A DNA stretch of 64,000 nucleotides from a virus (lineage: Duplodnaviria > Heunggongvirae > Uroviricota > Caudoviricetes): IMG/VR virus record IMGVR_UViG_3300028840_006985; one strand, 5' to 3'. The translations under genes and the position numbers were made by a program. The notes under the pieces are model-generated. The model made no database searches. It was not told the origin of the DNA and was given only the letters and a program-made list of their open reading frames with translations. This document shows positions 8,909 to 43,685 of the stretch, one piece after another. The first letter of the stretch is position 1, and the number at the start of each line of letters is the position of its first letter.

Positions 8909-9967
8909 TTAAATTGTTTTAACTTTGTTCAGGTACCAGTTCCGAGCGATTATTGAAACTTGTTTACTTACCTGTTTCCATGGTAGATCGTTTGTAGTAA
9001 GCTCATCGGTCGATTCTTTTAAAATATCATTATTAATCCATTTCAAAAAAGGACCCATCATTTTTATATCAATTCCATCTTGACACACTATCGATAATCC
9101 TTGCTCGCACCGTGCTTCGGTAACAAATTTTTCAGCAAATATTTGTGCATTTTTTATAATTTGAGGATCCATTTGTGCGGGTTTTTCCTGTTTAACAACT
9201 TGATGCTTTTTTCCTTTTGCTTTAAATATCAGTTCGGCAATTTCATCACGTGGGACAGATCTGTGACAAATTTGAGGATACATTACTATTCCTTCTCCAA
9301 TTCCTTCAACGCCAAATTGTTCAAAAACCCACGGATCTTTTTCTTCTACAGTATTTACTAATTCATTAATAAGGTCTACTTTTTTTCTTAAATCATCCTC
9401 ATTACCAAAGCTGAGAGCTATTGAATCGGTTGTTAACCATGGAATTACAAAGATATCATTAAAATTAATATCAATATTTTCATAATTTAACCATTTACTA
9501 TTAATATCTTCAGGATCTGTATAAAGGATGGAGTTTTCGTTAAAATTATTGTCATCTTCCTTACCTAATTGGATAGCAAAGATGGCGAAAATTTTTTTAC
9601 CTATTTTAGATATAGCTGTTCTTCGTTGAATTCCTTGGCCACACCATTCCCCGAAAATTACCAACTTGTAACCAGGTGGACGATTTAATATGGAAAAATA
9701 TGATTTATTTTTTGTAACCCAAGCACAAAATTCATAATTGTCCTTGCCGATAGATAGAATTCGTTCTCGTGATTGGGCGGTAACATTACCCTCTGAATCA
9801 ATCTGAACAATACCACACGTTCCATCCAGTTTGACTTTAGGACGGTATTTAATGGTAGGATAATCGTATTTTTGCCCTAATTCCTGTTCAATATATTTTT
9901 TTCGTTTTTTAATACTTCTTCTTAGATTGTGAAATTGTTCTATACTTATCCATTTTACTAGCTGCAT
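8909..9967 (-). CDS. RNA ligase (Rnl2-like adenylyltransferase family)
   Basis: Motif I KLDGT, FGEWCGQGIQ, EGIVMYP, FKAKG. Confidence 0.85.
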   Translation of the reverse strand: MQLVKWISIEQFHNLRRSIKKRKKYIEQELGQKYDYPTIKYRPKVKLDGTCGIVQIDSEGNVTAQSRERILSIGKDNYEFCAWVTKNKSYFSILNRPPGYKLVIFGEWCGQGIQRRTAISKIGKKIFAIFAIQLGKEDDNNFNENSILYTDPEDINSKWLNYENIDINFNDIFVIPWLTTDSIALSFGNEDDLRKKVDLINELVNTVEEKDPWVFEQFGVEGIGEGIVMYPQICHRSVPRDEIAELIFKAKGKKHQVVKQEKPAQMDPQIIKNAQIFAEKFVTEARCEQGLSIVCQDGIDIKMMGPFLKWINNDILKESTDELTTNDLPWKQVSKQVSIIARNWYLNKVKTI

Positions 9968-9970
9968 ATA

Positions 9971-10222
9971 TTACTCCACTATTTCTAACAGAAAGTCAAA
10001 CCTTAACTTTACCGGATATTCTTTGTCACAATTTTCGCAATAAATACCCGTTTTATATATTTTTCCCGATACAGGATACATAAGATATTCATCGTTAAAG
10101 TTTTTAATTAATTTAGCTTTACATTTCTCACACGTTTTATGAATTTCATAAGGTAAGTATTGTCTTTTTGGTCCTTCAATAGCGATTGGCAATTTTACAA
10201 GTTTCAATGTTTTTCCTTTCAA
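9971..10222 (-). CDS. small zinc-ribbon protein
   Basis: CEKC...CENC, 83 aa, first gene of leftward cluster. Confidence 0.6.
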   Translation of the reverse strand: MKGKTLKLVKLPIAIEGPKRQYLPYEIHKTCEKCKAKLIKNFNDEYLMYPVSGKIYKTGIYCENCDKEYPVKLRFDFLLEIVE

Positions 10223-10229
10223 AGTTTTT

Positions 10230-10259
10230 TTAATATCACATGTAAAATTTAAAAGTCAA
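10230..10259 (-). promoter_or_regulatory. sigma70-type promoter for leftward cluster
   Basis: Minus strand TTGACT, 17-18 nt, then ATATTA/TATTAA, just upstream of the 10222 start. Confidence 0.45.
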
Positions 10260-10298
10260 TTTTTTTTTAGAAGTAATATTAAAACAGCTATTTAACAA

Positions 10299-16066: not shown

Positions 16067-16111
16067 ATTAATGGCAAGACATTCCGCACTTGATATTTTA
16101 CCAGCGTTCAG
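16067..16111 (+). repeat. 45-bp direct repeat copy 1 (duplicated 5' end of tube gene 2; 17-codon stub 16071..16124)
   Basis: Matches 16839..16883 with one synonymous mismatch (TCC/TCT). Confidence 0.9.
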
Positions 16112-16162
16112 GTTGATACAGTAATCATTTCCTATATTTCTTCCGCGAGTAGGATTTAATTA

Positions 16163-16819
16163 ATGAATATTAGAAAAATAAATTATTGGTTATTAAAAAA
16201 AATCAACTTATTAAACGAAGATAGTGCATTACCTCCTGAATTTCAAGGATTCGGATTTGATATTGACGATGAACTGGTTAAATCATGGGATGATGATTTG
16301 GTTAAAAAATATGGATTACCTCGCTCGATTGATCCTTCTCAAGTTATAAAAAAGAAAATTAGCGGCATTAATTATATAAAATATTATGAAAAAAAGAAAG
16401 AGGCTACTATTGTAGACGCTGTTTGGGCATTTAGAGCGCCAGTATCTTCTGAGGAACAAGCAAAAAAAATAGGTATTAGAGCACAAAAAGCCTTAAAAGG
16501 AATAAGAACCTTACCTTCTACAATTCCTACTCTTCATACTAGAGCACTTTATGTTGGATGGAACGATGAAGATTCAATAAGTTTAGTAAAATTACCACCA
16601 ATAAAACAATCTAAAGAATATTTTGCATTTGAAAAGGATATGTCTAAAAAGGATGCGCTCAATTATCTGTTAAAAAAAAGAAAGATAAAAAAATCCATGA
16701 TAAATGCATTACAAATAAGCGAACTAGAATTTGAATGGCTAGACAGTTTATCCAACAAGGAGTATAATCAAAATATAGATAAATATATTGAAATGTATAC
16801 AAGAAAGTGGAAATATTAA
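16163..16819 (+). CDS. hypothetical protein with MNI..INYWLL..I.LL.E leader (inserted gene)
   Basis: Leader nearly identical to that of 4036..5388; lies between 45-bp direct repeats. Confidence 0.7.
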   Translation: MNIRKINYWLLKKINLLNEDSALPPEFQGFGFDIDDELVKSWDDDLVKKYGLPRSIDPSQVIKKKISGINYIKYYEKKKEATIVDAVWAFRAPVSSEEQAKKIGIRAQKALKGIRTLPSTIPTLHTRALYVGWNDEDSISLVKLPPIKQSKEYFAFEKDMSKKDALNYLLKKRKIKKSMINALQISELEFEWLDSLSNKEYNQNIDKYIEMYTRKWKY

Positions 16820-16838
16820 CTATATTTTATAACATGTG

Positions 16839-16883
16839 ATTAATGGCAAGACATTCTGCACTTGATATTTTACCAGCGTTCAG
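16839..16883 (+). repeat. 45-bp direct repeat copy 2
   Basis: Covers the start of the intact 16843 gene. Confidence 0.9.
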
Positions 16884-17505
16884 ATTTCATCTTGTTGACG
16901 TAGCAACAACGATTGCATTTCCTGTATTTCTTCCACAAGCAGGGTTTAGTGAGATTACAGCTCCAGAAATAACTGCAGATATAGAAGAAATAAAAGAAGG
17001 CAATGCAATAGTCAAACGAAAGGTGATTACTGGCGCTTCCATGTCAACAATGACGTTGTCTAGGGGTGTTACATTCTTTGACAGCGATTTTTGGAGATGG
17101 TTTAGTAATGCTATATTAGGTCCTGAGCCGTCTTTACTTTCTCACCGTGTTAGAAGAAACCTAATGCTTTTACAATTTATGCATATTGGTGCAAGCACAA
17201 CAGCAGGAATAGCCATATCGGCTGGAGCTACGGCTTTTCTTGGTGGAGTAGCCGGCGGAGCCGGCGGTATTGCTGCCTTAGGAATTGCGGCTGGGGCGGT
17301 AACGTTAGCAGGTGGTATGTGGAGAGTGCCGGCCAAGGCGTGGATGCTTTGGAATTGTTTACCGTCAAGATGGAAGTCAGGGACAGATTTTAGCGCTAAT
17401 GACACAGCGGTATCTATTGCTGAGCTAGATATTGAGCCAGAATTAGTTGAAGAGTATTCCCTTACAACAACATTAGGCAGTTTGGCCGGTGGAGTATTAG
17501 GATAA
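16843..17505 (+). CDS. second gp19-like tail tube protein with Gly/Ala-rich hydrophobic insert
   Basis: AGFSEITAPEIT..I.EIKEGN, MTLSRGV, W.SGTDFSANDTAVSIAELDI. Confidence 0.85.
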   Translation: MARHSALDILPAFRFHLVDVATTIAFPVFLPQAGFSEITAPEITADIEEIKEGNAIVKRKVITGASMSTMTLSRGVTFFDSDFWRWFSNAILGPEPSLLSHRVRRNLMLLQFMHIGASTTAGIAISAGATAFLGGVAGGAGGIAALGIAAGAVTLAGGMWRVPAKAWMLWNCLPSRWKSGTDFSANDTAVSIAELDIEPELVEEYSLTTTLGSLAGGVLG

Positions 17506-17547: not shown

Positions 17548-18453
17548 ATGTGGGAAGGATTTGAATTACAAAATGGCAACATTGAATGGAAGTATTATGA
17601 ATTATTTTCTTCAGGGATCAAGAAATATTTACGTTATAAATTTGGAATAAGTAATAAAAATTGGTATGTTATTGAATTTGATGAAGATGGTGAATATATA
17701 AAAGATGATATGGGCAGTGCTAAAAATATAGATGATTCTTTTAAGAAGGCTACTCAATTTTTAAAAAAACTTTCTAAGAAAATAAAACCACCAAACAAAA
17801 ATGAATATAAAAAAATACGTACCCCAGAAGAAAAAGCTAAATTTATAGCAAAAATTCGTACTCAGCAGAAATTCGAGTTACCAGAGGAAGGATATTATCC
17901 AGAGGTATTATTACCTCCTGATAATAATGAAAAAGGCGAAGAAGTTTATAACGGTATTGCTCATTATGAATCATCTAATACTCATAGATTTGTTTACTAT
18001 GTAGATGGTGAGGCTGCATCTGGATTAATGCTTAAAATTATAATTGCTAGAAAAAGTGCAACAATAGATAGAGTATATACTAAACCTAAACATAGAAGAA
18101 AAGGTTATGCTAAAAAGTTATTCAAATATGCAAAAGAGATTTATCATAAAATATATCATTCAATAGACTTAACGGGTGTTGGTGAAAAATGGAAACGCAA
18201 CGTGGGTGAAATATTTACAATAGGAAAAGAGATGGCATTAATTGACGAATTAAAAAAAATAGCTGAAACAATTACAACGGCAAATGTGCCGGGAGTAATT
18301 GCTCCAATGGTAACTATTAAGCGAATGCCAATCTTAGAGCCATTGGAAATTACTAAGGAAAAAATAGATAAAGTTAAGAAAAGAAAAAAATATCATCATA
18401 CTGCTGAATTTATTGATATTGAAGATTTATTAGATGGTTGTAATTGTGATTAG
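17548..18453 (+). CDS. GNAT acetyltransferase-domain protein (possibly fused to a 73-aa gene starting at 18232)
   Basis: IDRVYTKPKHRRKGYAKKL acetyl-CoA motif A; internal AGGAAAAGAG-ATG MALIDELKKIAE. Confidence 0.7.
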   Translation: MWEGFELQNGNIEWKYYELFSSGIKKYLRYKFGISNKNWYVIEFDEDGEYIKDDMGSAKNIDDSFKKATQFLKKLSKKIKPPNKNEYKKIRTPEEKAKFIAKIRTQQKFELPEEGYYPEVLLPPDNNEKGEEVYNGIAHYESSNTHRFVYYVDGEAASGLMLKIIIARKSATIDRVYTKPKHRRKGYAKKLFKYAKEIYHKIYHSIDLTGVGEKWKRNVGEIFTIGKEMALIDELKKIAETITTANVPGVIAPMVTIKRMPILEPLEITKEKIDKVKKRKKYHHTAEFIDIEDLLDGCNCD

Positions 18454-18487
18454 TGCAATTTGATTGCATTAAAATAATAATCATGCT

Positions 18488-19381
18488 TTACTGTGTCAAA
18501 ATTTTATTACAGATTTTAGATATTTCTTCAATAGCAGTTCTTTCTATTTTTTCCATATGAATTACTTCATCAAGATTTCCAAAGTAACATTCTAGACATT
18601 CAATTAATAATTTTTTTATTTTATCTTCTTGTGGACCATATGGCAAATCTGATTTATGATACACATTCTTAAGTTGTTCTTCTTTTTGTTCAAAATATCG
18701 AGTAATTTTTTCCTCTGTCCATTCTCCCCTTCTAATGGCTTTTAAAATCTCTCTGTCACGTTCAAGATTTAAATTTTTTTCTGTTAAGATTTGTTCAACC
18801 TCATTAATAAGTCTAACGACATGATAAGCAAATTTACAATCAAATCCATATTGTTGAATGTCTTTATATCTTTTTGAGTCCTGTTGAGGTCTTTTTGTTT
18901 TAATTTTATGAAGTTGACTATAAGCGTAACCTTTGAATTTATGCCAACAACCTCTGTGTAAAAATATTTTTCTATTTTCTCTAACAAGTTGGCCGACAGG
19001 GGAACAATAAATTACGCAACGTTGAGGAACAAAAAGAGCATCTACCATGTTGGGGTTATTTTCCATGCATAGTTGAAAGAACTTTACGATACTATATATT
19101 TGAAAATCATATTCTTTACCTTTTTTTTCATCTTTTACATGATGTTGTTGCCATTGTTCAAAACGATTAATTTGCTTTCCAAAGCCTAAAATTTCTCCTC
19201 TCAAATGAGGAAAAATCATATCTTTTTTAGGAATACAAAATCCATAGATGTCTGCATCGCTATCATCGGCGGCAACACCATAAGCAACTGATCCCATTAG
19301 GCAAAGATATTGCGTTGATTGAGGTAACCAAGGGGGTGGATTGATTAGTCGATCTCTAACAAGGTTTTTTAAAAGAAACAT
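18488..19381 (-). CDS. predicted nucleotidyltransferase (DNA pol-beta superfamily, RNA-repair type)
   Basis: GSVAYG...DSDADIYG, NPNMVDALF, FKGYAYSQL, KFAYHVVRL. Confidence 0.85.
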   Translation of the reverse strand: MFLLKNLVRDRLINPPPWLPQSTQYLCLMGSVAYGVAADDSDADIYGFCIPKKDMIFPHLRGEILGFGKQINRFEQWQQHHVKDEKKGKEYDFQIYSIVKFFQLCMENNPNMVDALFVPQRCVIYCSPVGQLVRENRKIFLHRGCWHKFKGYAYSQLHKIKTKRPQQDSKRYKDIQQYGFDCKFAYHVVRLINEVEQILTEKNLNLERDREILKAIRRGEWTEEKITRYFEQKEEQLKNVYHKSDLPYGPQEDKIKKLLIECLECYFGNLDEVIHMEKIERTAIEEISKICNKILTQ

Positions 19382-19398
19382 TATAAAAATACTATTTT

Positions 19399-19794
19399 TT
19401 AAGTTAATTCGGCAATTTTTCGATCAAGTTCTTCCAGTGACATTTCACGATCTTTTTCACGTCTTTTTTCGTCTTTTAACGCCAATAGTTCTTCTCGACG
19501 AGATTTGCGCGCCATTTCATTCTCATTTTCTTTAATTTCTTTTAGTTTAACATCTATAACATGTTTAACTATATCCAACTTGAGTTGTAATATTGCTGTT
19601 TCAGGATTAACTTTATGCACAAAAGATTCGGTTGCGCATTCTTTTAATTGTGCATTTATTGTTATAGCAATCATATCTAGATTAGGTCTAGTGTTACTGG
19701 TTAATGGCAAATCCCACAAGTCTTCAACGCTTGCCATTCCAACAGGCGTATTAAATCTTAATTTAATGCGCGCCGCTTTTTCAAATAAATTCAT
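19399..19794 (-). CDS. conserved phage protein (NLFEKA.R.KLRF...VEDLWDLPL family)
   Basis: Motif recalled from large phages, usually next to a 21175-like gene. Confidence 0.7.
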   Translation of the reverse strand: MNLFEKAARIKLRFNTPVGMASVEDLWDLPLTSNTRPNLDMIAITINAQLKECATESFVHKVNPETAILQLKLDIVKHVIDVKLKEIKENENEMARKSRREELLALKDEKRREKDREMSLEELDRKIAELT

Positions 19795-19854
19795 TTTAAT
19801 AACTCCTTTTTTGCTAATTTTACTTGTTGATGTTTGGTTTTTTAATATACCTTA

Positions 19855-21123
19855 CTAAGTAATATTGTTTATTATTGCTTTTCTAATATCATCGTCATCC
19901 TCACTTAATTTTTCTAGGGTTTCTGTTGGACAATTGGGATTTTCTGCTACCGCTAGTTTAATATACCAGCAATTGTTTTTACTTAATTCTTTTAGTGTCT
20001 CTATTGGACAGTTAGGATTTTTTGCTACTGCCCATTTAATATCATTATGATTTTCTTTACTTAATTCTTTTAGTGTCTCTATTGGACAGTTAGGACTTTC
20101 TGCTACTGCTTTTCTAATACCCCAATTGTCATACTTACTTAATTTTTCTAGGGTTTCTGTTGGACAGTTGAGATTATTTATTACTTCACATCTAACATCA
20201 CTATCATCATCCTTGCTTAACTTTTCCAGGGTTTCTGTTGGACAATTGGGATTGCTTACTACTGCTCTTCTGACACTCCAATAATCATCCATACTTAATT
20301 TTTTTAATATTTCAACTGAACAATTAGAATTTAATACTACTTCCCTCCTAACATCCCAATCATTATCATTACTTAATTTGTCCAATATATTTACTAAGCA
20401 ATTAGGATTTTTTGCTACTGCCCATCTAACATTCCAACTATCGTCTTTGCTTAGCTTTTCCAGGGTTTCTGTTGGACAATTGGAATTTTTTGCTACTGCT
20501 TTTTTAACATTCCAATTATTATCTTTACTTAGTTCTTTTAATATATCCACTGAACAGTTAGGATTCTTTGCTACCGCTTCTTTAATATTATAATTACTAT
20601 CTTCGCTTAATTTTTTTAACACATTTATTGGACAGTTAGAATTATTTACTATTGCCCATTTAGTATACCAATTATCATCCTTGCATAATTTGTCTAATAT
20701 TTCAACTGGACAGTTAGGATTTCTTACTACTATCTCTTTAATATTATTATCTTCACTTAATTTTTTTAATGTATTGATTGAACAGTTAGGATTTGCTGCT
20801 ACTGCTCTCCTAACATCATTATTACTATCTTCACTTAATTTTTCTAATACTTCAGCAATATTTAATTCTTCTTTGATGTGTATTTCTGAGCAGACAATCT
20901 TGTCTTTCCCCTCTTTTATTTTTCCATCTCCCTTCACCTTGCAACAATGATGTGCCTCCTCTTTATAATATTCAAATGCATCACTTAATTTTTTAGAAAA
21001 ATGAAAACCTGATTGACAAAGTATTACTGGACCATCATGTTTATATTGTTCTCCTACCTTGAATTGAAAATCACCGTACTTTGCTTTGTAATCTTTTAAA
21101 AAAAACTTATATCCTTCTATCAT
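19855..21123 (-). CDS. DUF7666-like N-domain plus LRV repeat protein, copy B
   Basis: N-terminus nearly identical in DNA to copy A; 12 NPNC-type repeats. Confidence 0.8.
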   Translation of the reverse strand: MIEGYKFFLKDYKAKYGDFQFKVGEQYKHDGPVILCQSGFHFSKKLSDAFEYYKEEAHHCCKVKGDGKIKEGKDKIVCSEIHIKEELNIAEVLEKLSEDSNNDVRRAVAANPNCSINTLKKLSEDNNIKEIVVRNPNCPVEILDKLCKDDNWYTKWAIVNNSNCPINVLKKLSEDSNYNIKEAVAKNPNCSVDILKELSKDNNWNVKKAVAKNSNCPTETLEKLSKDDSWNVRWAVAKNPNCLVNILDKLSNDNDWDVRREVVLNSNCSVEILKKLSMDDYWSVRRAVVSNPNCPTETLEKLSKDDDSDVRCEVINNLNCPTETLEKLSKYDNWGIRKAVAESPNCPIETLKELSKENHNDIKWAVAKNPNCPIETLKELSKNNCWYIKLAVAENPNCPTETLEKLSEDDDDIRKAIINNIT

Positions 21124-21174
21124 TGCTTTTCTTCCTTGATTTTTTAATATTACAGTATAATTAAATTTTATTTT

Positions 21175-23247
21175 TTAAAATATAATCTTTAAAGTTCTAT
21201 TTATATCTTCAGATATTTTAACAATAACTGAATTACGTTTGGTAGATGAAAAGCCTAATCCACTTATTTGGTTTGTATTTTTTTCGCATTTCATCTTTTC
21301 GCCTAGTACTTCGAATACTTTCCTATGTATATTTAGTTCATTTTTGATAAATTCATTATAGAATCCACGAGCCTTATCTTCATTTTTACAACCATCTATC
21401 ATGAAAAAGTAGTGTCGATTACCGACACCTATATTATTCCAATGATTAGGTGAATACATGATAGCATTGACCTTGTGAAATTTTTCTGTTTTTATGCCCC
21501 AAATTTCTTTGGAGGTTTTATCATGAGGCAATGATTCTATAATTTTTAATCCATTTTCTCGTGAATATAAAATATTTGCGACTGTTACTTCATGGCCGTC
21601 TGCTAGATTTTTATCAAAAGAAAATTTATAAATTATTCCATCGAATTCTATTTCTGCTCGAAAGCCAGATCTTCCACCCCGATGTGTATAGTTATGTACA
21701 AAAAATCTATATTTACCTTCTGGCATTTTAGCAGGATTTGTATATGTTATATTTTCTACTGCAACATTTTTGATAGGTTCAACAATATCAACATCTAAAT
21801 GTCCAGATGACGGATGCTTTAAACCTTTGTTAGGATAATAAATATGATTACTATTCGGTTCGAACACATGGGCGTCAAAATCATTATGATTATCGCCATC
21901 CTCATTCCACTGAATAGAAAATCTTAGATAAGCGTCAATATTTCCACCTGCTGATTTAACTCTTCTCTTCATTAAAGAGTCAGTAATATTTCCATTATAA
22001 GTCCAGCTGAAGTTATTATTCCATTTAAAGAGTAAGGGGGCATCAATGTGTACAGGAGCAATTAGCGATACTAGATTGTTTTCATGATTGTTGGTAAATT
22101 GTATTTTAATACTGTTACATTTTGGTACTATTTTACTAATAAATTCCTCAATAGAAACTTCTTCTATACCGTCAAACTGTTTAGGATTTTCTTTAACTTC
22201 ATTGCTTAATATTTTCACTAAATTATCTTGCATTAATTCAGACGCAGATCTATCAGCAAAAATAACATTATTTATACTAACATCCTCTAGTTGAGCATAA
22301 CGACGTTCTAACGAATCTCGTAAGCCTAGTTCATCAATTTTTAAGATAGCTTTCTCTATCATATGTTTCGTAATAGGAGCCGAGGTTCTTTTGTAATTTT
22401 CAGGAGCAACCTTCTTTTCGTAGGAGTTAACGGCGTTATTTAGCTCTATACCATTTGATAAATCTAAAAGCAATGTACCAATTGCGGTTCCTCGAATTTT
22501 AGCAGCCCAACTTTTATAGTTAAGCCAAGTATAATATTCTTTTTTTTCATTTTTGAGATTTGAATATATTTCTTTATGTGAGCGAAACTCTTCAATCATT
22601 GATCGAAATTCTTCTCCACGATAAATGGAATTACTATCAATAAGATCTAAAACCAATTCAATAGCAACTATGTTAATTTCTTCAAGTCCGCGTTCAAATA
22701 CTCCTTGCGCAGATGAGGCATCTCCAATTAAGGTTCCTTTATTTGAGGATAAAAATCTGTCAGGAACTATACAATTAAAATGATGCCATGTAATATGATC
22801 AATATTTGGTGGATCTTTAGAATGATCATGGCCCGATCTAAGCACAGTCAGATCTTCAATATTAGATTCTACACTTATGTAAGCATCTTCAGGATCTATT
22901 AGAAAAATTTGATCAATTTTACATTTCTTGATCAGAGTATCCATCTTTTTAGCAACAATTTGATACTTTATGTCTAGAGGTCCCTCTAAATGATCGATAT
23001 TCCAAACAGTTATCAATTCATTGTTTACGATTTTAACAACACGTCCTATTCTAAAAATGAATTTATTGCAATTATCACAATCATATTTTTGTCTTTCGCG
23101 AAAGATTTTATTAGTGCCTGGCGGAAATGCTTCTTGATAAGACTGAAAAAGTTCATCTTTATTAATATCTACTATGAATAATGGACCTTCTTCCGCCATT
23201 GAATAAAATTGTTTTCTTACTTTATTTGCAAAATTTTTAAAACTCAT
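21175..23247 (-). CDS. conserved large phage protein with YfaP/DUF2135-like domain
   Basis: LRFSIQWN...DFDAH..EP, HLDVDI...AVENI, YSPNHW....GNRHYFF. Confidence 0.7.
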   Translation of the reverse strand: MSFKNFANKVRKQFYSMAEEGPLFIVDINKDELFQSYQEAFPPGTNKIFRERQKYDCDNCNKFIFRIGRVVKIVNNELITVWNIDHLEGPLDIKYQIVAKKMDTLIKKCKIDQIFLIDPEDAYISVESNIEDLTVLRSGHDHSKDPPNIDHITWHHFNCIVPDRFLSSNKGTLIGDASSAQGVFERGLEEINIVAIELVLDLIDSNSIYRGEEFRSMIEEFRSHKEIYSNLKNEKKEYYTWLNYKSWAAKIRGTAIGTLLLDLSNGIELNNAVNSYEKKVAPENYKRTSAPITKHMIEKAILKIDELGLRDSLERRYAQLEDVSINNVIFADRSASELMQDNLVKILSNEVKENPKQFDGIEEVSIEEFISKIVPKCNSIKIQFTNNHENNLVSLIAPVHIDAPLLFKWNNNFSWTYNGNITDSLMKRRVKSAGGNIDAYLRFSIQWNEDGDNHNDFDAHVFEPNSNHIYYPNKGLKHPSSGHLDVDIVEPIKNVAVENITYTNPAKMPEGKYRFFVHNYTHRGGRSGFRAEIEFDGIIYKFSFDKNLADGHEVTVANILYSRENGLKIIESLPHDKTSKEIWGIKTEKFHKVNAIMYSPNHWNNIGVGNRHYFFMIDGCKNEDKARGFYNEFIKNELNIHRKVFEVLGEKMKCEKNTNQISGLGFSSTKRNSVIVKISEDINRTLKIIF

Positions 23248-25671: not shown

Positions 25672-25970
25672 TATTTAAAGTATTTTATATAGAAATATAA
25701 CTGTATTAGTGTTTTTGTATAATATTTTTTAATATCTTTTATATGGCAAGTATCAACTGAAAGATGGTTGTTAATATTCTAAAGATATTAATAATTGTAA
25801 ATTATGCAAAAAGAGTAAAAATCATATAGTAAAAAAGTGAACAATATCATATTTTTATAATTGGTTGAGTGGGAAAACAAATAATATCATACCTTTACAA
25901 CATATGGATCAATAAAACAAATAACCAAACAGTGATTTTAGACAATTAAGGGCATAGGTAGATATTTGGT

Positions 25971-35837: not shown

Positions 35838-35987
35838 AAAGGAAGAGAAGGATAATGGATAAGATTAAACCAAGATGTGATAGAGAAAAACTAATCATAA
35901 GAAGAAAAAGGGATATAAGAAGTCTAAAAAGATTGGGTCATCGATTGATTACCTTTGGCATTTGATGAGTATATCAGAGGATTGATA

Positions 35988-36320
35988 ATGGACAAAGGTG
36001 AAATAATTAAAAAAGGCAAAATTAAGATTAAGTCAAAATCTGATCGTGATGTATTTGAAAAGTTAATGAGATCGGACAAGGTGATAAATATAGAGATTAC
36101 TAAAGAAGATTTAGAGAAAGTAAAAGATATAAAAGATAAAGATTTAGCTTATTTGGGGTTAAAAAATATCTTAACTGGAAGAATGGTTCGTGAACGAAGA
36201 GCAATTATTGAGGAAGAAACAGAAAAAGATATATTAAAGCAGTTGAGAAATCTTGATTTTGATTTGTTAACTTATGGAGATTGTTTTGACGGATTCGATC
36301 AAGAGGAGGATAAAAAATAA
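35988..36320 (+). CDS. hypothetical protein
   Basis: ATG after AGAGGA; coupled to the next gene. Confidence 0.5.
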   Translation: MDKGEIIKKGKIKIKSKSDRDVFEKLMRSDKVINIEITKEDLEKVKDIKDKDLAYLGLKNILTGRMVRERRAIIEEETEKDILKQLRNLDFDLLTYGDCFDGFDQEEDKK

Positions 36321-36583
36321 TGGGAATGGGATGTGGTAGAAATGGTTGTGATAGTATCATGTATGATGTGTCAATATTTGGTAGATATATTTGCGGGGAT
36401 TGCCTAAATGAACTTAGGGAGGCGATTAAACATAAATTTTCTGAAAAAACAAAAAAGGGCAAGGTAAAAAGGTTTGTAGAAGCCTTTATGGAGTCAAAAC
36501 CGGGCGATTTTTCTGTGGAAGAGGTTGATGCAGAGGAAATATTAGAGGATCTTCTTGATTATGGGGATAACTGGGACGAATAG
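36320..36583 (+). CDS. small Cys-motif protein
   Basis: CGRNGC...CGDC; TAATG coupling. Confidence 0.55.
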   Translation: MGMGCGRNGCDSIMYDVSIFGRYICGDCLNELREAIKHKFSEKTKKGKVKRFVEAFMESKPGDFSVEEVDAEEILEDLLDYGDNWDE

Positions 36584-36585
36584 GG

Positions 36586-37089
36586 ATGTTAAGGATTAGA
36601 ATGTCTAGTGAGCTTATTAAATGGATGGAACAAGTAATTAACCAGGCGGGTAATTCTGCTGATTTTATTTGTCCTCAATGCAAAGATGGATGGCATATAG
36701 ATGGTTTAAAAGGGGAGGATATTAAATGTCCGGGGTGTGGTTATATAATATCGAGAGAGAATTACACTAAGATTGTGAAGGGGTTAAAGGATTATATTAA
36801 AGAAGTGGAGAAGGTTGTTAAAATATTAGATAAGCCAGATGATATTCCAAAACAATTAGAACAGGTTGATCTGGAGGCAATAACAGACACATGTGAGAAT
36901 TATCTTCAGTGGATAATTAGTGATAATTACCATGAGGATAAAGACAGAGATCATGAACATATAATATATGAGACTGTATTAGAAGCCGTATATGGCGAGG
37001 ATATTTGGGAGTGGGTTAATAAACAAATTGATGAAAAGCAGGATATTTGGGAACGGGTTAATAGACAAATTGATAAAAAGAAGGAGTAA
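36586..37089 (+). CDS. zinc-ribbon-containing hypothetical protein
   Basis: CPQC...CPGC, then acidic domain. Confidence 0.55.
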   Translation: MLRIRMSSELIKWMEQVINQAGNSADFICPQCKDGWHIDGLKGEDIKCPGCGYIISRENYTKIVKGLKDYIKEVEKVVKILDKPDDIPKQLEQVDLEAITDTCENYLQWIISDNYHEDKDRDHEHIIYETVLEAVYGEDIWEWVNKQIDEKQDIWERVNRQIDKKKE

Positions 37090-37092
37090 AAT

Positions 37093-38682
37093 ATGAGTTT
37101 AGATAATATGGCTGATTTTTTATTAAAATCATGGGAATCATTGGAAGGTTTAAAAGATATTAAGAATTTTATTGCAAACCATTGTGATAATGATGAATTG
37201 CAACAGACGCAAGCACAAATGCAAGTATATGTTCAAGAGTTAACCAATGGGATGTTGTTAATGGTATTAAAAAAGGTAACAGAAGAGTTGTTTACTGAAC
37301 CTACTGAACCTACTGAACCTACTGAACCTACTGAACCTACCGAACCTACTGAACCTACTGAACCTACTGAACCTACCGAACCTACTGAACCTACCGAACC
37401 TACTGAACCTACTGAACCTACCGAACCTACTGAACCTACCGAACCTATCGAACCTACTGAACCTGGACCTTCAATTGAGCCTATTGAACCTATGTTTTCA
37501 TTGTTAAATAATGAAATTATTAAATCTAGAACAAAAACATCATTGGATTTTGAAAGTTTTCCAACGATGCCACCAACGGATCTGTCTGGGAATACAATAT
37601 TTATAGATGCGGGTGGTGATATTCAACGGGCTGTGAACAATGCTCCATTGTTTAGTAAGTTAGTTTTAAGAGGTGGAGTGCATCAAATAAGCAATTTATC
37701 AATTAATAAACCTCTTACGCTAATAGGATATCCAGGGGAGGAGGCTGTATTAGTGCCAAGTGGACAAGGGAGGGGAATAGGAGTTACAGCTAATGATATT
37801 AGTTTAATTAATTTGGATATGAGGAATTACGAAGAATTTTGCGTGATCATGGGCCATGATATTCATAATTTAAAAATGGTTAATATGAAAATGGATAATA
37901 TGAGGGAAGGGGTAACTCTTTGGGGTGAACGAGGTTGTGGGGCGGTTGTTACCGGATTGTTAATGTATGCTTGTAGCGTAACAAATTTTGGTGAAATTGG
38001 ATTGCACTCAGGAGTTGGAAAAGGTGTAAATTGGCGAATTGAGAATTGCCGATTTATTGGAATTGGTGGAGGGGAGGGGTCAGGTGCTGATGCGTTGGCG
38101 ACGGAAGATTGTCACAATGTATTATTGGTAAATAATGAAATGGCCAATGCAACGGCAGATGGAATTGATTTAAAAGGTACTAATGTTGTAGTTTATAAAT
38201 GTAATATACATGATATCCTTCGAAATGGTGTGAAGCTATGGAATGGGGGGGATATTATTGATTCTCATATAATGAGGACGGGAGCTGATGGGCAAATAGT
38301 AGTTAGAGGTGGTAATTTATTTATTGATAATTCTGTCTGTATCTATCATGGCAGATCGGCGCCAAATGTTTACGATCCACCTTCTTATCATTCAACATTT
38401 GGGTATAATGAAGCGGGCGAGGGGGAAGCCGGGATGAATAGTGTTGAGCTAAGGAATTCTGTGTTTGCCTATTCTTATGGGGCGGTTTGGGTTAACGCAG
38501 GATGTAGTCAAATTACACTTAGCAATAATAAATTTTTCACTGGATGTTCAAATCATACTGTATTTCAACATGGTAGTTATGAGGTTATCTTAGGAGGTGA
38601 TGATGCGCAATTTGACAGATATGGTTCTTCAACGATTGAAGACCCTGGGTTGGCCTACGCAACATTGGCGGTAGGATGGTAA
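37093..38682 (+). CDS. right-handed parallel beta-helix (pectate-lyase-like) protein with TEP linker
   Basis: GDIQRAVNNA, LVLRGG.H, TLIGYPGE, DGIDLKG, GVKLW repeats; AAGGAG RBS. Confidence 0.8.
   Translation: MSLDNMADFLLKSWESLEGLKDIKNFIANHCDNDELQQTQAQMQVYVQELTNGMLLMVLKKVTEELFTEPTEPTEPTEPTEPTEPTEPTEPTEPTEPTEPTEPTEPTEPTEPTEPTEPIEPTEPGPSIEPIEPMFSLLNNEIIKSRTKTSLDFESFPTMPPTDLSGNTIFIDAGGDIQRAVNNAPLFSKLVLRGGVHQISNLSINKPLTLIGYPGEEAVLVPSGQGRGIGVTANDISLINLDMRNYEEFCVIMGHDIHNLKMVNMKMDNMREGVTLWGERGCGAVVTGLLMYACSVTNFGEIGLHSGVGKGVNWRIENCRFIGIGGGEGSGADALATEDCHNVLLVNNEMANATADGIDLKGTNVVVYKCNIHDILRNGVKLWNGGDIIDSHIMRTGADGQIVVRGGNLFIDNSVCIYHGRSAPNVYDPPSYHSTFGYNEAGEGEAGMNSVELRNSVFAYSYGAVWVNAGCSQITLSNNKFFTGCSNHTVFQHGSYEVILGGDDAQFDRYGSSTIEDPGLAYATLAVGW
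37294..37464 (+). repeat. 9-bp tandem repeat AC(T/C)GAACCT, 19 units (TEP)
   Basis: Read directly; one ATC unit. Confidence 0.95.
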
Positions 38683-38683
38683 T

Positions 38684-39052
38684 GTGAAGACTTTATGTGT
38701 TGATTTTGATGGCGTTATTAATTTGTATACTAGTGGTTGGACTTGGTTGAGTCATATTGGTGATATTCCAGATCGACCAGTTGAAGGTGCTTTTGATTGG
38801 TTAGAGGAAATGGTAAAACATTTTAAGGTGTATATTTATTCTAGTCGTTCTAAATTTGAAGGTGGTATTTATTTTATGAAAAAATGGTTTATAAAGCATG
38901 GATTTTCATCTGAAGTTCTTAATAAGTTAGAGTTTCCAACACAAAAGCCTCCTGCTCATCTTATAATAGATGATCGTGCTTATCTTTTTAAAGGACCTTC
39001 ATCTTTTCCTTCTGTAGAATTTATTCAAAATTTTAAACCTTGGAATAAGTAA
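38684..39052 (+). CDS. HAD-superfamily phosphatase/nucleotidase
   Basis: Motif I VDFDGV, SSR, KP...IIDDR. Confidence 0.8.
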   Translation: MKTLCVDFDGVINLYTSGWTWLSHIGDIPDRPVEGAFDWLEEMVKHFKVYIYSSRSKFEGGIYFMKKWFIKHGFSSEVLNKLEFPTQKPPAHLIIDDRAYLFKGPSSFPSVEFIQNFKPWNK

Positions 39053-39070
39053 GAGTGAAAAGTATTTTTT

Positions 39071-39113
39071 AAAAACATAAGGCTAGGTAGTAATTATCTA
39101 GCCTTATGTTTTT
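39071..39113. terminator. bidirectional intrinsic terminator
   Basis: AAAAACATAAGGCTAG...CTAGCCTTATGTTTTT. Confidence 0.8.
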
Positions 39114-39143
39114 ATCATGTATCAGAAAAGGATATTGTGTTAA

Positions 39144-39596
39144 ATGAAAGTTTTTTTTAAAGCCGAGTGTGTTGTTAACATAGAGACTACATTAGATTTT
39201 GATGATACTTATTATAATAGAATAATGATGAAGTATGCTTGTTTACAAAATTATTACGAGAGCATGTTTCGGAATAGTTACGACAGTAACCATAGTGATT
39301 TGGTTAAAATGATTAATGAAAAAGTACATAATGGGGGTCTATCTCTTAACAAAGTTGGCAGAGTTCAAAAAATAGAATTAATAGAATCAGAGGATGAGTT
39401 TAAAAACTTAAAAGTGGGTGAATGGTTTAAGTTGTTGCCAGATCAGGCAGGATATGATTATATTGCAGATCACAATTCAGTGTTTATGAAAATTGATGTT
39501 TGTGGAAACATAAATACGACAGTAGTTAAAGGTGAAGATGTTGGAAAATTTCGTTATTTTAATCCCAATATAGTCGTGATAAGGATTAGAGAATAA
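39144..39596 (+). CDS. tandem paralog family X, member 1
   Basis: MK.FFK...NIET.L; F.NLK.GE.F.L; FMK; V.GE.VG. Confidence 0.7.
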   Translation: MKVFFKAECVVNIETTLDFDDTYYNRIMMKYACLQNYYESMFRNSYDSNHSDLVKMINEKVHNGGLSLNKVGRVQKIELIESEDEFKNLKVGEWFKLLPDQAGYDYIADHNSVFMKIDVCGNINTTVVKGEDVGKFRYFNPNIVVIRIRE

Positions 39597-39620
39597 TAAA
39601 AAAATCAAGGAAGAAAAACA

Positions 39621-39755
39621 ATGATAGAAGGATATAAGTTTTTTTTAAAAGATTACAAAGCAAAGTACGGTGATTTTCAGTTTAAGGTAGGAGAACGATA
39701 TAAACATGATGGTCCAGTAATGATGCAAATCGAGATGTTCGGAACAGGGCGGTAG
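39621..39755 (+). pseudogene. 5' stub of LRV-repeat gene (copy C)
   Basis: First 33 codons and upstream AAAATCAAGGAAGAAAA nearly identical to copy B, then unrelated sequence and TAG. Confidence 0.85.
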
Positions 39756-39786
39756 ACGTTTTAAGACTAAGATTAAAGGAAGAAAA

Positions 39787-40227
39787 ATGAAGAAGATTTT
39801 TTTCAAAGGCAAAGGCAGAGTAATTATCAATATGGAGACCTTGTTAGAGATCTCCGATCCTGATTTTCAGAGGGCAACATTTAAACATGGTGGTTTACAG
39901 GATTATTTCAATGAAAGGCGTGATGAATTGCTTTCATTGATTAATGAAAAGAGGTGGGAACTAGCGTCAGACGATAGAGTTATGGAAATTGTTTCAATAG
40001 ATTTATTAGAGGAGGTGGATGTATTTATCAATTTAAAAATAGGTGAACGGTTTAGGCAATTTTCACAATTAGGTGTTATTGATGAATCAATATTTATGAG
40101 AACCATTAACGAGTATTGTGGCACTACTGGTAAGGTAACATTGAGGGCAGTAAAGATTGAGGGTGGTGAGGGTGTTGGAAATATTATTTCTTTAGGGGAT
40201 GATTGTCTCGTAATAAGGATCGACTAA
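39787..40227 (+). CDS. tandem paralog family X, member 2
   Basis: MKKIFFKG..INMETLL; FINLKIGERF; AVKIEGGEGVG. Confidence 0.7.
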   Translation: MKKIFFKGKGRVIINMETLLEISDPDFQRATFKHGGLQDYFNERRDELLSLINEKRWELASDDRVMEIVSIDLLEEVDVFINLKIGERFRQFSQLGVIDESIFMRTINEYCGTTGKVTLRAVKIEGGEGVGNIISLGDDCLVIRID

Positions 40228-40240
40228 GAGAGGATAAACA

Positions 40241-40414
40241 ATGTCAAGAGATATTAAATGGGATCATGGTTACCTTAGAGAATATGAAAGATCTGATGAG
40301 GATTTTAACGGAAAGAGCCTTAAACAGGCAGTGTTAGATCTTCAGAAGCAAATTTGCGATTTAGAGAGAGTGATTGATTTTATAAAAAAGAAGGGAGAAG
40401 GGGAGAATGGGTGA
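40241..40414 (+). CDS. small hypothetical protein (57 aa)
   Basis: AGAGGA RBS, overlaps next start; below the ORF-track cutoff. Confidence 0.4.
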   Translation: MSRDIKWDHGYLREYERSDEDFNGKSLKQAVLDLQKQICDLERVIDFIKKKGEGENG

Positions 40415-40862
40415 GGTAAGGAAGATTTTTTTTAAAGGTAAATGTAAAATAGCTGCCAATATAGAAACTGTATTAGAATGGTCAAAGGATGAATTTGATG
40501 AGATATTGGCAGAATATGGACATCTGAAGGATTTTTTCACAAGTAATTATAACTTGTTATCTGAAATGATTAACGAGCAAAGTTGTAAAGGAGAATTATC
40601 GATTAGTCAAATTGGCGTGGGTAAGCAGTCTGTCGAGGATATCTCAATAGAGTCATTAGGGGTGATGTATATTTTTGATGATTTAAAACAAGGTGAACGA
40701 TTTAAACTCTTACCAGATAATGGAAAATCGGTTTTTGTCAAGACTGAAGAGAAATGTGATAAGTATGGGCGGGTAACAATAAATGCAGTGGCAGTTGAAG
40801 GAAGAAATGTCGGATGTTTATATTGTTTTGATTTCAATCGGAATGTGGAAAAGGTGAAATAA
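40407..40862 (+). CDS. tandem paralog family X, member 3
   Basis: KIFFKG..ANIETVL; FDDLKQGERFKL; NAVAVEGRNVG. Confidence 0.7.
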   Translation: MGEVRKIFFKGKCKIAANIETVLEWSKDEFDEILAEYGHLKDFFTSNYNLLSEMINEQSCKGELSISQIGVGKQSVEDISIESLGVMYIFDDLKQGERFKLLPDNGKSVFVKTEEKCDKYGRVTINAVAVEGRNVGCLYCFDFNRNVEKVK

Positions 40863-41261
40863 ATGAAAAAAGTTTTTCTTGAATGTAGATGTGTTTTAAA
40901 AATAAAGAGTGTATTGGATGTGCCTGATAATTATGTAAACAATAACGATGAAGTGGTTAGAATAATTAAGGGAGAAATATCTGGAGGAGGCATTAGGGTT
41001 CATGGTGATCTTATAGAGAATGTTCAAATAGATTTACTTGAAGTTGGAAATGTATTTTACAATTTGAAGACAGGTAGTCAGTTTAAGTTAGCACCAGATA
41101 GTTTGGGGTATAGTGAACATTCAATATTTGTTAAGATTGATAAACATAGTAATAGCAATGATGAAGAATTCAATGCGGTAAGGGTTAAAGGCATTGAAAA
41201 TGTTGGAAAATTGTGTTATTTTATTCCCATGCAACCTGTAGTAAAAATTAATAATTCTTAA
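40863..41261 (+). CDS. tandem paralog family X, member 4
   Basis: MKKVFLEC; FYNLKTGSQFKL; NAVRVKGIENVG. Confidence 0.7.
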   Translation: MKKVFLECRCVLKIKSVLDVPDNYVNNNDEVVRIIKGEISGGGIRVHGDLIENVQIDLLEVGNVFYNLKTGSQFKLAPDSLGYSEHSIFVKIDKHSNSNDEEFNAVRVKGIENVGKLCYFIPMQPVVKINNS

Positions 41262-41279
41262 CTTAACGGGAACTAAAAA

Positions 41280-41672
41280 ATGAGTCAAACAAAGGTTATT
41301 AAAGATTTATACAATAGAATCGTGGAGCAACGAGAGCATAATAAAGGGATATTTATTTATGATGATATTTTGAGTAATATTAATCGAAATGGTGAAGTAT
41401 TTGTTGAGCCTGACGGAACTAGTGGTAATTTAAATTTGTATGGAAGTGATAATAATGGAAGGGTGATTCGTAGGCGGTTTGCGTGGATTTCGGTTCAGAG
41501 CGTGGATAAATTATGGTCTTTTTTAAAAGAACATGGATTTGTAAAAAAGTTTAGGGTGCATTCCAAGTTGGATTTGTCGGAATTTGAAGGAGGGGAGGGT
41601 TGGGTTTCCATTTCGCCAAGAAGTGTGGAAGAGATAGGAATTAATTATGGGGGAGACAGGAGGCAAAAATGA
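41280..41672 (+). CDS. hypothetical protein
   Basis: 130-aa ORF in island. Confidence 0.55.
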   Translation: MSQTKVIKDLYNRIVEQREHNKGIFIYDDILSNINRNGEVFVEPDGTSGNLNLYGSDNNGRVIRRRFAWISVQSVDKLWSFLKEHGFVKKFRVHSKLDLSEFEGGEGWVSISPRSVEEIGINYGGDRRQK

Positions 41673-41719
41673 GTGTAAGTACTGATGCTATATTATTTTA
41701 TGGATTTTTTTTAGAATAA
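41669..41719 (+). pseudogene. 16-codon gene stub MSVSTDAILFYGFFLE
   Basis: AGGAGG RBS, ATGA coupling; start resembles a phage protein family start but stops at once. Confidence 0.35.
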
Positions 41720-41792
41720 ATCTAATCTTCCATATGGTGTAGGATGATAAAAACTATTAATTAATGTAAATTAAAAAGATGGAACTGTCAAA

Positions 41793-42296
41793 ATGCCGTT
41801 AGTAGTTGTTGATCTGTTTAACTCAATTAAGTCTGTTTTTGAGGATGTTTCTCAAAATCAGAAGACATCCTTAGATGCAGCCAAAGGATTGGCCGGGGCA
41901 TATAATAGTTATGCGTCAACGGCGATGGCTGGGGTTGCAACTCCAATTTTTACGGGGGCTGAGGAGGCAATTATGACGGGGACGTTGGCGGCGGTTTTAA
42001 CTCCGATGGGTGCGGCGGCCACCTTTGCGATGGCATTACAGAATGCAATATTGAGTTATTGGCTTGCGCCTCCTGTAAATTTTATTGGCACTCATCCTGG
42101 AATGGTAACTGTGGCGCCGGGGGTACTTACGCTAGGTGCTTCTTTAACGTCGGTATTGTCTAATCCGATGAACACTATTGAATCAGCTGCTCAACAGATG
42201 GCAACATTGATTGACGTAGCGACTAAAACGGTAATTGTTACGTTTTTTCCTCCACCGCCTATACCTCCGCCTCCACCGCCTATGCCAATTGTTTAA
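41793..42296 (+). CDS. spike-associated conserved baseplate protein (putative)
   Basis: Ala-rich, AAQQMATLIDVATKTVIV, Pro-rich end; type I recall following Gp5 genes. Confidence 0.55.
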   Translation: MPLVVVDLFNSIKSVFEDVSQNQKTSLDAAKGLAGAYNSYASTAMAGVATPIFTGAEEAIMTGTLAAVLTPMGAAATFAMALQNAILSYWLAPPVNFIGTHPGMVTVAPGVLTLGASLTSVLSNPMNTIESAAQQMATLIDVATKTVIVTFFPPPPIPPPPPPMPIV

Positions 42297-42331
42297 TTTT
42301 TTTGAAAATATATTGTCAAATTAAGGAGTTT

Positions 42332-42509
42332 ATGACAGCAATGATTAGTCCGCAAACTTTATTAAGATTGCTCTAATATTATAATTGCTGTTCCTGGTGG
42401 TTATGAAGAAGAGTTAAGATCGGGTACATGGTCAACAATTCGATATGCGAAAAAAATAAAAACATCATATAAAATAATTTATCCCGACGGGTCTATTGGG
42501 GATGAATAA
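42332..42509 (+). pseudogene. SLOG/DprA-like gene remnant
   Basis: AAGGAG-ATG in one frame, then out-of-frame C-terminal IIIAVP..EEELRSGTWSTIRYAKK..IIYPDGS. Confidence 0.5.
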
Positions 42510-42540
42510 CAAATTGTCATTTCTTTAGTTTTTTCTTTCT

Positions 42541-42594
42541 CTAAAAAACAAATATCCAAGCAATCTAGTTGATTTTCTTATTATTTTATGTTAT
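42541..42594 (+). repeat. ~54-bp direct repeat copy 1 containing promoter TTGATT-17-TATTCC
   Basis: 38-bp identical core AAAAACAAATATCCAAGCAATCTAGTTGATTTTCTTAT shared with 43221..43258. Confidence 0.9.
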
Positions 42595-42619
42595 TCCTTA
42601 TTAAGAAGAGGGAGAAAAA

Positions 42620-43207
42620 ATGAGTTTTATATCTGATTTGAGACAGATTTGTGAAGTAAAAAGTAGTGAATTATTTCATACTACTTCATTTGAGGGTTTA
42701 TTGGGTATATTAAAAGATAAAAAGCTTAAATCTAGAAATATTAATAATTCGTTTATATCTTTTTCTGAAGTTCCATATCTGGGTGATATAAGTGGTAATG
42801 ATATAGTTTTGGTGTTTAATCGAAATAAATTAAGAAATCAATTAATCAAAGTTGAATATACAAAGAAATGGTATGAACAATATACAGATCAAGCGGCTTA
42901 TATTGCTGGTGAAGGTTGGTTAGCCCAATTTGATATAGATGATTGGATTGATTCAGATGATATTGATATTGAGACAGGGGAAGTTGATTCAGATGTAGAA
43001 AATGAAGTTTATGCACAGGCTGAGATGCAGGCTTTTTTAGATAAGAGTAGCGAAAAGGAATGGATAACAAGGCAAGAGATGCAGCCGGTTAGCTTTGATT
43101 ATGATGATATTTACGTTATTCTGGTGCCTGATAGGACAAAAATTGATATGGTTAAGAGCTGGTTAGATGATTTGGGAATTAATATTAAAATAAAATCATT
43201 AAGATAG
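42620..43207 (+). CDS. putative ADP-ribosyltransferase-fold protein with ISDLRQICE leader
   Basis: LFHTT..GL.GIL....LKS, FISFSE, late EKEW (ExE-like). Confidence 0.55.
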   Translation: MSFISDLRQICEVKSSELFHTTSFEGLLGILKDKKLKSRNINNSFISFSEVPYLGDISGNDIVLVFNRNKLRNQLIKVEYTKKWYEQYTDQAAYIAGEGWLAQFDIDDWIDSDDIDIETGEVDSDVENEVYAQAEMQAFLDKSSEKEWITRQEMQPVSFDYDDIYVILVPDRTKIDMVKSWLDDLGINIKIKSLR

Positions 43208-43218
43208 ATCTTTTTTTT

Positions 43219-43271
43219 CTAAAAACAAATATCCAAGCAATCTAGTTGATTTTCTTATCATTTTATGCTAT
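43219..43271 (+). repeat. ~54-bp direct repeat copy 2 containing promoter TTGATT-17-TATCGT
   Basis: See copy 1; lies upstream of the gp25 gene. Confidence 0.9.
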
Positions 43272-43319
43272 CGTCTATTAGAATGTGTGTAAAAATCTAA
43301 ATATTTTAAGGGTTTCTCA

Positions 43320-43685
43320 ATGGGTTTATATGGGATTTCTTTTCCATGGCGCAAAGGGGATGATGGTATACCCTCGGCAGATTATGATCGAAACGTAGTC
43401 AAAGGTTCTATAATTCAGATAATCAAGACTAGGATGGGCGAGAGGATAAGGGAGCCAACTTACGGAAGTTTGATTTATAGACTATTATTTGATAATAATA
43501 ACGAGCTGACAATAGTAAAAATAAAAGAGGAAGTGTACAGGGCTATTAGTGCATGGGAAAAGAGGGTGGATATTTTAAAGATAGATGTTGTCATTGACGA
43601 ATCAACTATTACTATTGATGTGTTTTATGAGTATTTAAACGAAGCTGATGACGTAAAAATTGAGATAGATAAAATTGTTGTTTAG
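43320..43685 (+). CDS. baseplate wedge protein gp25/GpW family
   Basis: GISFPW, SIIQII.T..GERI.EP.YGS....LFD, AI..WE.RV. Confidence 0.92.
   Translation: MGLYGISFPWRKGDDGIPSADYDRNVVKGSIIQIIKTRMGERIREPTYGSLIYRLLFDNNNELTIVKIKEEVYRAISAWEKRVDILKIDVVIDESTITIDVFYEYLNEADDVKIEIDKIVV

Follow-up and report, generated by a model that had tools for sequence, protein, structure and literature searches.

The DNA analysed here, a 64,000-nt stretch of a tailed-phage genome (hereafter the window), carries a gene flanked by two copies of a short repeat in the midst of its tail genes, which raises the question of how this gene came to lie there and what its product does. The first-pass annotation, made by eye, had taken it for cargo with a product resembling ADP-ribosyltransferases (ARTs), bracketed by a duplicated promoter. 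The reading frame (42620-43207, plus strand) is open, encodes 195 aa and is preceded by a ribosome-binding site (AGAGGGAG, 42607-42614, plus strand) 5 nt before the ATG. Within the protein, an N-terminal extension (residues 1-16, 42620-42667), which contains I10-C11-E12, is set apart by its low confidence in the structural models and by its position outside the conserved domain, the family domain beginning at about residue 15-17. The remainder (residues 17-195 plus the stop codon, 42668-43207) forms the ART-fold domain, assigned from fold searches, a profile search of the PDB and residue conservation.

To the left of the locus lies a tail or baseplate gene (41793-42296, plus strand) encoding 167 aa with a poly-Pro C-terminus, and to the right a gp25-like baseplate wedge gene (43320-43685, plus strand; PF04965, E 5e-13; phrog_261/43). 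The latter is followed by gp6-like and P2-I-like genes, and sheath, tube and baseplate-V-like genes lie further 5'; by these neighbours, the region is the tail module of a large phage with a contractile tail. Relatives were retrieved with the gp6-like protein by an alignment-based search, a single-sequence search of IMG/VR with the same protein having returned none. The closest relative, L029 (177,890 bp, CheckV 100% complete), has a gp6-like protein that is 61% identical and a homologue of the 41793 gene that is 56% identical. In L029 this homologue stops at 8613 and the ATG of gp25 is located at 8622, leaving a gap of 8 nt. The same direct adjacency was observed by tblastn synteny in L020, L021, L023, L024, L026/27, L008 and L011. 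Thus, the empty-site search, which the first-pass annotation had named as a check, revealed that the upstream tail gene abuts gp25 in L029 and in no fewer than seven relatives that are more distant, and that a segment of 1,023 nt (42297-43319, plus strand) is missing from them. Five relatives, of which three have records at least 93% complete, were searched over their full records with a profile of the protein family, which detected no homologue; as a positive control, the same profile recovered 3 of 3 records with a known homologue. The empty site and the lack of a homologue in the five records agree with the description of the gene as cargo, and the comparison supports its arrival as part of a 1-kb insertion of moron type between contiguous genes of the baseplate operon.

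Within the insertion, a direct repeat of 51 nt is present as copy 1 (42544-42594, plus strand), 5' of the 195-aa reading frame, and copy 2 (43221-43271, plus strand), 5' of the gp25-like gene and 49 nt from its ATG. The copies are identical at 49 of 51 positions (2 mismatches), and weaker similarity flanks both, bringing the total to about 70-88 nt. The 51-nt repeat has only these two copies in the 64 kb; a 25-mer taken from it is present at two sites of the window and no more, whereas 0 occurrences are expected from 100 shuffles. Both copies contain a promoter-like core. In copy 1, TTGATT (42569-42574) is separated by a 17-nt spacer ending in TGT from TATTCC (42592-42597), with T-rich and then A-rich DNA upstream; in copy 2, TTGATT (43246-43251) is followed by a 17-nt spacer ending in TGC and by TATCGT (43269-43274), all on the plus strand. 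Hence the elements described by eye on both sides of the gene, TTGATT-17-TAT(TCC/CGT), were recovered with the hexamers as given. The -10 hexamers of both copies are poor, that of copy 1 lacking the final T, and for this reason neither core was listed by a consensus promoter scan of the window. No terminator was found by scan at the insert.

The supposed duplication of a promoter held in one respect, in that both genes have a copy of the repeat on their 5' side. Copy 2, however, is no pre-existing promoter of gp25: that reading was rejected because the relatives have no intergenic space at this position. Moreover, a 20-mer of the repeat was absent from L029 at up to 3 mismatches, and this, together with the missing intergenic space, indicates that both copies are part of the inserted DNA. 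An exact 22-mer was likewise absent from IMG/VR and the JGI metagenomes. That the two copies are so alike although their flanks have diverged points to selection or to a recent exchange. When the halves of the repeat were searched separately, neither proved to be a general motif of the window. The A-rich upstream half has a 15/18 match at 25915-25932, at the edge of a region free of open reading frames and rich in repeats (25.7-26.7 kb); an 18-mer of this half, at up to 3 mismatches, was found three times in the window (this site and the two exact repeat copies) against 0.28 expected. A structured RNA or a stem-loop of the PeSL type was ruled out as the nature of the repeat, as it has no match in Rfam and no significant RNA fold.

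The arrangement is nevertheless akin to the PeSL cassettes of T4-type phages, in which PeSL flank ORFans; when the flanking copies recombine, the gene is lost or a mini-circle able to reinsert is freed (Arbiol et al. 2010, PMC2839356). As in PeSL cassettes and morons, an ORFan missing from relatives lies between two copies of a sigma70-like element. In contrast to the PeSL cassettes, there is no stem-loop terminator here, the element has only two copies in 64 kb and is a putative promoter, and the site is a core baseplate operon rather than a hyperplastic region.

The insert also contains a gene remnant of ~43 codons (42372-42509, plus strand), recognised by homology as the C-terminal end of a SLOG/DprA-like gene that would have encoded about 140 aa. 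Its frame has stops upstream, the remainder of the gene having been deleted or having decayed. Proteins of 130-165 aa match the remnant at 60-70% identity over their residues ~99-138; they carry an N-terminal GFTGT...HHGDCIGAD motif and give weak matches to DprA and cpYpsA-SLOG profiles. Its presence implies that the insert was once larger or was built from several promoter-gene units. SLOG domains are predicted to handle ADP-ribose derivatives, and the decayed SLOG-like gene (42297-42509) may be a former partner of the ART-like gene.

Other parts of the window also differ from L029. The interval 35838-41792, bounded by the baseplate-V-like gene and the 41793 gene, spans about 5.9 kb and holds nine open reading frames, including four tandem paralogs (39144-41261). 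Its counterpart in L029 contains a single HNH-like frame of 225 aa (7426-8103), and in other relatives it is shorter than 0.7 kb; by this comparison, the operon has received a further lineage-specific insertion here, larger than the first. Between two tube-gene paralogs, a frame of 218 aa without any family match (16163-16819) is flanked by a 48-nt repeat, 96% identical (region 16067-16886), the right copy of which is the 5' end of the tube gene at 16843. The tube genes of L029 are 428 nt apart and lack a homologue of this frame, so that 16067-16886 is another repeat-flanked insertion. Finally, the stretch 17548-23247, with an acetyltransferase-like gene and reverse-strand genes, has no counterpart in L029, where the gap between the second tube gene and the homologue of the 23730 gene is about 0.6 kb.

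To which family does the product belong? Neither the protein nor five close homologues gave a meaningful match in Pfam, PHROGs, PADLOC or NCBIfam, and tblastn of the protein against 50,697 GenBank phage records returned no match. Two AlphaFold models were therefore built, from alignments of 6 and 46 sequences, with pLDDT of 84 and 92.8. The comparison with ART folds by Foldseek, also named beforehand as a check, placed DarT structures first (E 7e-6 and 5e-5, probability 1.0), and after these came M. tuberculosis DarT, Tpt1/KptA and E. coli DarT1. VIA-align, which compares 48,161 chains independently of Foldseek, gave Z of 9.7, 9.0, 8.7 and 8.1 for DarT and 8.8 for Tpt1 with the six-sequence model, and 8.0-8.6 for DarT and Tpt1 with the 46-sequence model, Z of 8-9.7 being near the range that VIA calls 'middling'. 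The next ~20 rows were almost all ART toxins (Scabin, pertussis, LT, CteC, TreTu, PltA and others). With both models and both aligners, DarT and Tpt1 thus led the lists, of which the best ~25 entries were ARTs with few exceptions. DUF2971 and DarT were the nearest clusters to the protein's own model in the ESM Atlas, and BFVD yielded only uncharacterised viral proteins at a TM of about 0.4.

At the level of sequence, a profile of the six sequences found no match in the PDB. A profile of 46 solo members found eight at E < 1, all of them RNA 2'-phosphotransferases (Tpt1; E 0.023-0.8); the alignment, at borderline E, covers only ~60 N-terminal residues and sets LYHtT...FVSfS over LYHGT...YVHVS, with H20 and S47 aligned to the two His of Tpt1. 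By fold, and weakly by sequence, these results support membership of the ART superfamily, nearest to the DarT/Tpt1 branch. The ART fold of DarT type proposed in the first-pass annotation is thus borne out by both structural searches, with DarT at the head and ART toxins behind it. DarT membership did not hold, as the protein is not DarT by sequence, charge or catalytic residues.

To gain more insight into the likely active site, conservation was counted over 83 full family domains. The motifs picked by eye, LFHTT (residues 18-22), ISFSE (46-50) and EKEW (145-148), hold some of the most conserved positions of the family: H20 (77/83), S47 (78/83), S49 (75/83), E145 and E147 (78/83 each), the H, SxS and ExE residues thus being kept in 75-78 of 83. 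Their codons are located at 42677-42679 (H20), 42758-42760 (S47), 42764-42766 (S49), 43052-43054 (E145) and 43058-43060 (E147) on the plus strand. Y80 (42857-42859) is invariant (83/83), and L18 (77/83), T22 (78/83), P52 (76/83), V78 (81/83), W84 (80/83), Y94 (77/83) and W148 (75/83) are similarly well kept; an IAGEGW block (residues 95-100) is retained in 57-74 of the 83. All of these positions, the block included, occur in the 195-aa protein. In the models, the predicted strands 17-22, 47-49 and 147-150, corresponding to the first, second and fifth core strands, hold or adjoin H20, S47/S49 and E145/E147, respectively. The His / Ser-x-Ser / Glu-x-Glu set is, as modelled, the classical arrangement of an ART triad.

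No Arg is conserved anywhere in the 83 domains, which excludes both the catalytic Arg of DarT (R51) and the Arg-rich site of Tpt1; R51 of DarT is essential for catalysis (PMC9967889). The domain is also strongly acidic. Its net charge is -15, close to the family median of -16, and a stretch between the central strands and the ExE strand (residues 105-131, 42932-43012, plus strand) has a net charge of -13; an acidic substrate face would speak against nucleic acid as the target. In ARTs, the ExE motif is associated with arginine-directed modification of proteins. Taken together, the marked acidity, the ExE motif and the absence of a conserved Arg make a basic protein or an arginine the probable target and DNA or RNA an improbable one.

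An exhaustive profile search gathered 138 clusters at 50% identity, and this family (about 138 clusters) has no Pfam, PHROG, NCBIfam or PADLOC model. Its members occur solo or as a domain of polyvalent proteins of about 300 to 5,285 aa, together with ART-PolyVal, PARP, anthrax-lethal-factor-like metallopeptidase, SprT-like, topoisomerase I, acid phosphatase, GNAT, 2H phosphoesterase and nucleotidyltransferase domains. Direct fusions, with the ART domain N-terminal and the NUDIX box intact, were found in five cluster representatives (P0015, P0016, P0065, P0081 and P0083), and a sixth has NUDIX elsewhere in the same polypeptide. Furthermore, P0052 combines the family domain with GNAT and 2H phosphoesterase domains and P0014 with a PARP catalytic domain, and at locus L003 the gene adjoining the homologue encodes a NUDIX domain. 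The recurrence of NUDIX and 2H partners lends independent support, at the level of domain architecture, to a chemistry of NAD or ADP-ribose, although the partners fused within polyvalent proteins are often unrelated in function.

In IMG/VR, the homologues reside on phage contigs of 147-331 kb as well as on smaller ones (about 40 kb); their neighbourhoods vary, and none of the homologues adjoins baseplate genes. Two family peptide patterns found no relative among the GTDB species genomes. On the 331-kb contig (L001), a 328-aa protein encoded two genes downstream of the homologue (9292-10278) has an N-terminus, LYHGT...GL(I)P, that resembles an ART-type strand-helix motif, and has no match in Pfam or PHROG.

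Among the modifying domains of polyvalent proteins, ARTs are the most frequent; such proteins are predicted to be carried by the virion, and genes of the T4 Alt family adjoin baseplate genes (Iyer et al. 2017, PMC5512222). The present family is akin to ART-PolyVal (PF18760) and T4 Alt in that all are phage ARTs, solo or within giant multi-enzyme proteins predicted to travel in the virion. However, the PF18760 profile gave no match at E up to 10 in six members, and where PF18760 and the family domain share a polypeptide (P0027, P0043), they are distinct domains. The active-site patterns differ as well, being H/SxS/ExE here, H-Y-D in ART-PolyVal and R-S-E in Alt. By the defining features of DarT, Tpt1, ART-PolyVal and Alt, the protein belongs to none of them and is a member of a separate, unnamed ART clade.

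The N-terminal extension bears on delivery. A [LIV]-x-E motif occurs in 22 of 33 leaders of solo members (8-30 residues), against 9.3 +/- 2.3 in composition-preserving shuffles, none of 2000 of which reached 22, the sequences compared being related to one another. The Glu mostly lies 4-6 residues before the first strand, as part of I10-C11-E12 in the present protein, and several multidomain members have the same motif before the domain. Proteases of the gp21 type cleave on the C-terminal side of Glu and trim short propeptides from the N-terminus of packaged proteins, Alt among them (PMC9026906). L029 has a gene for a prohead protease of the T4 gp21 type (PF03420, E 4.5e-18); no such gene was found inside the 64-kb window. 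The motif and the protease would be compatible with packaging into the head. Among related sequences, though, the spacing between motif and domain does not vary, so that the motif may have a structural role instead of marking a site of cleavage. The first-pass annotation had assigned the extension to a class of leaders (type 2) shared with other reading frames of the window. This was not upheld, as the only similar N-terminus in the window, that of the frame at 3681, is not significant given the number of comparisons. Delivery with the virion, for which the first-pass annotation had named the packaged ART Alt of T4 as a precedent, is plausible, on the grounds that the gene lies in a late structural operon, that the family occurs in polyvalent proteins and that a hydrophobic-x-Glu motif precedes the domain.

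Could the enzyme instead make or consume soluble ADP-ribose derivatives, as a Tpt1/KptA-like or NADase-type activity in RNA-end repair or in making or removing a nucleotide signal? If so, the fused relatives would work with their NUDIX or 2H partners, and the NUDIX fusions and the single 2H fusion indeed mirror the KptA-Nudix and KptA-2H associations (PMC9503650). Tpt1 is also the only family matched in the PDB at the sequence level, with its LYH(G/T)T and (Y/F)V(H/S)(V/F)S strands aligned and Z of 8.3-8.8, and the SLOG-like scrap adjoins the ART gene. The likeness does not extend to the catalytic apparatus, however. The N-terminal winged-helix domain is absent, the domain here starting at about residue 15, and so are the phosphate-binding Arg residues and the Arg-His-Arg-Arg catalytic set; the second His of H-H-h is replaced by Ser. 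ExE is present, and its combination with SxS is typical of transferases to protein. Finally, the present protein is a solo member, and its gene has neither an RNA ligase nor a 2H gene nearby in the window. We consider a Tpt1- or NADase-type activity unlikely.

A DarT-like enzyme that ADP-ribosylates bases of DNA (or RNA), modifying host or phage nucleic acid, is quite improbable. What recommends it is the fold: DarT (PF14487; Thermus sp. 2.9, 7OMV/7OMW; M. tuberculosis, 7YK3) is the best structural match, over almost the whole domain, and the next best, Tpt1/KptA, act on nucleic-acid phosphates. DarT and the present protein share a His-x-Thr in strand 1 followed by a helix, a length of ~200 aa and a role in phage-host conflict. 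Yet the PF14487 profile gave no match at E up to 10, neither in six members of the family nor in two jumbo-phage records with homologues. DarT is basic and presents a basic DNA groove where the acidic stretch lies in this domain, and the family, which has SxS and ExE, offers no invariant Arg to play the part of R51. No DarG partner is present, the neighbours being the SLOG-like scrap and gp25, nor does any macrodomain or NADAR partner adjoin, and the gene is phage-encoded rather than part of a host toxin-antitoxin pair. That the protein is an inactive ART fold with a structural, decoy or binding role (e.g., as an acidic mimic), and the repeat a by-product of the inserting recombination, is very improbable: the acidic composition resembles that of DNA-mimic proteins and the promoter consensus is weak, but the expected NAD+-binding and catalytic residues are the best conserved over 83 diverged domains, unlike those of a pseudo-enzyme, and the selection or recent exchange to which the near-identical repeat copies (49/51) point, given their diverged flanks, also speaks against it.

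The reading that we favour, and regard as fairly probable, is that the gene is an intact solo member of the ART clade, carried by a moron-type insert of 1 kb with a doubled promoter-like element, and that its product catalyses NAD+-dependent transfer of ADP-ribose. The enzyme would bind NAD+ and move ADP-ribose onto a host macromolecule, and this modification would serve host take-over or counter-defence. Copy 2 of the repeat would re-supply transcription from gp25 onward after the insertion had broken the tight coupling that the two genes show in relatives, and recombination between the copies could excise or move the ART gene.

A wider scheme for the clade can be drawn, although as a whole it is rather improbable. 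Here, phages would deliver members of the clade (H / SxS / Y / ExE, acidic) with the virion, either solo or cut from polyvalent proteins at hydrophobic-x-Glu, and a basic host protein would be ADP-ribosylated. The NUDIX-fused forms would trim the mark to phosphoribose, which would then resist erasure by host macrodomains, and the promoter repeat would provide a handle for hopping between phage genomes.

Phage-borne ARTs are increasingly recognised in host take-over and counter-defence, but few of them have known targets. As predicted from sequence and models, the gene described here is a compact (195 aa), intact and solo representative of a family without a profile, tied by structure to the nucleic-acid ARTs DarT and Tpt1 and seemingly protein-directed in its chemistry. 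With L029 lacking both the gene and the repeat, the borders of the insertion are known to the base, making the locus a clean natural experiment. It would thus offer a convenient entry to the biochemistry of the family and to the study of how effector genes move into conserved structural operons.
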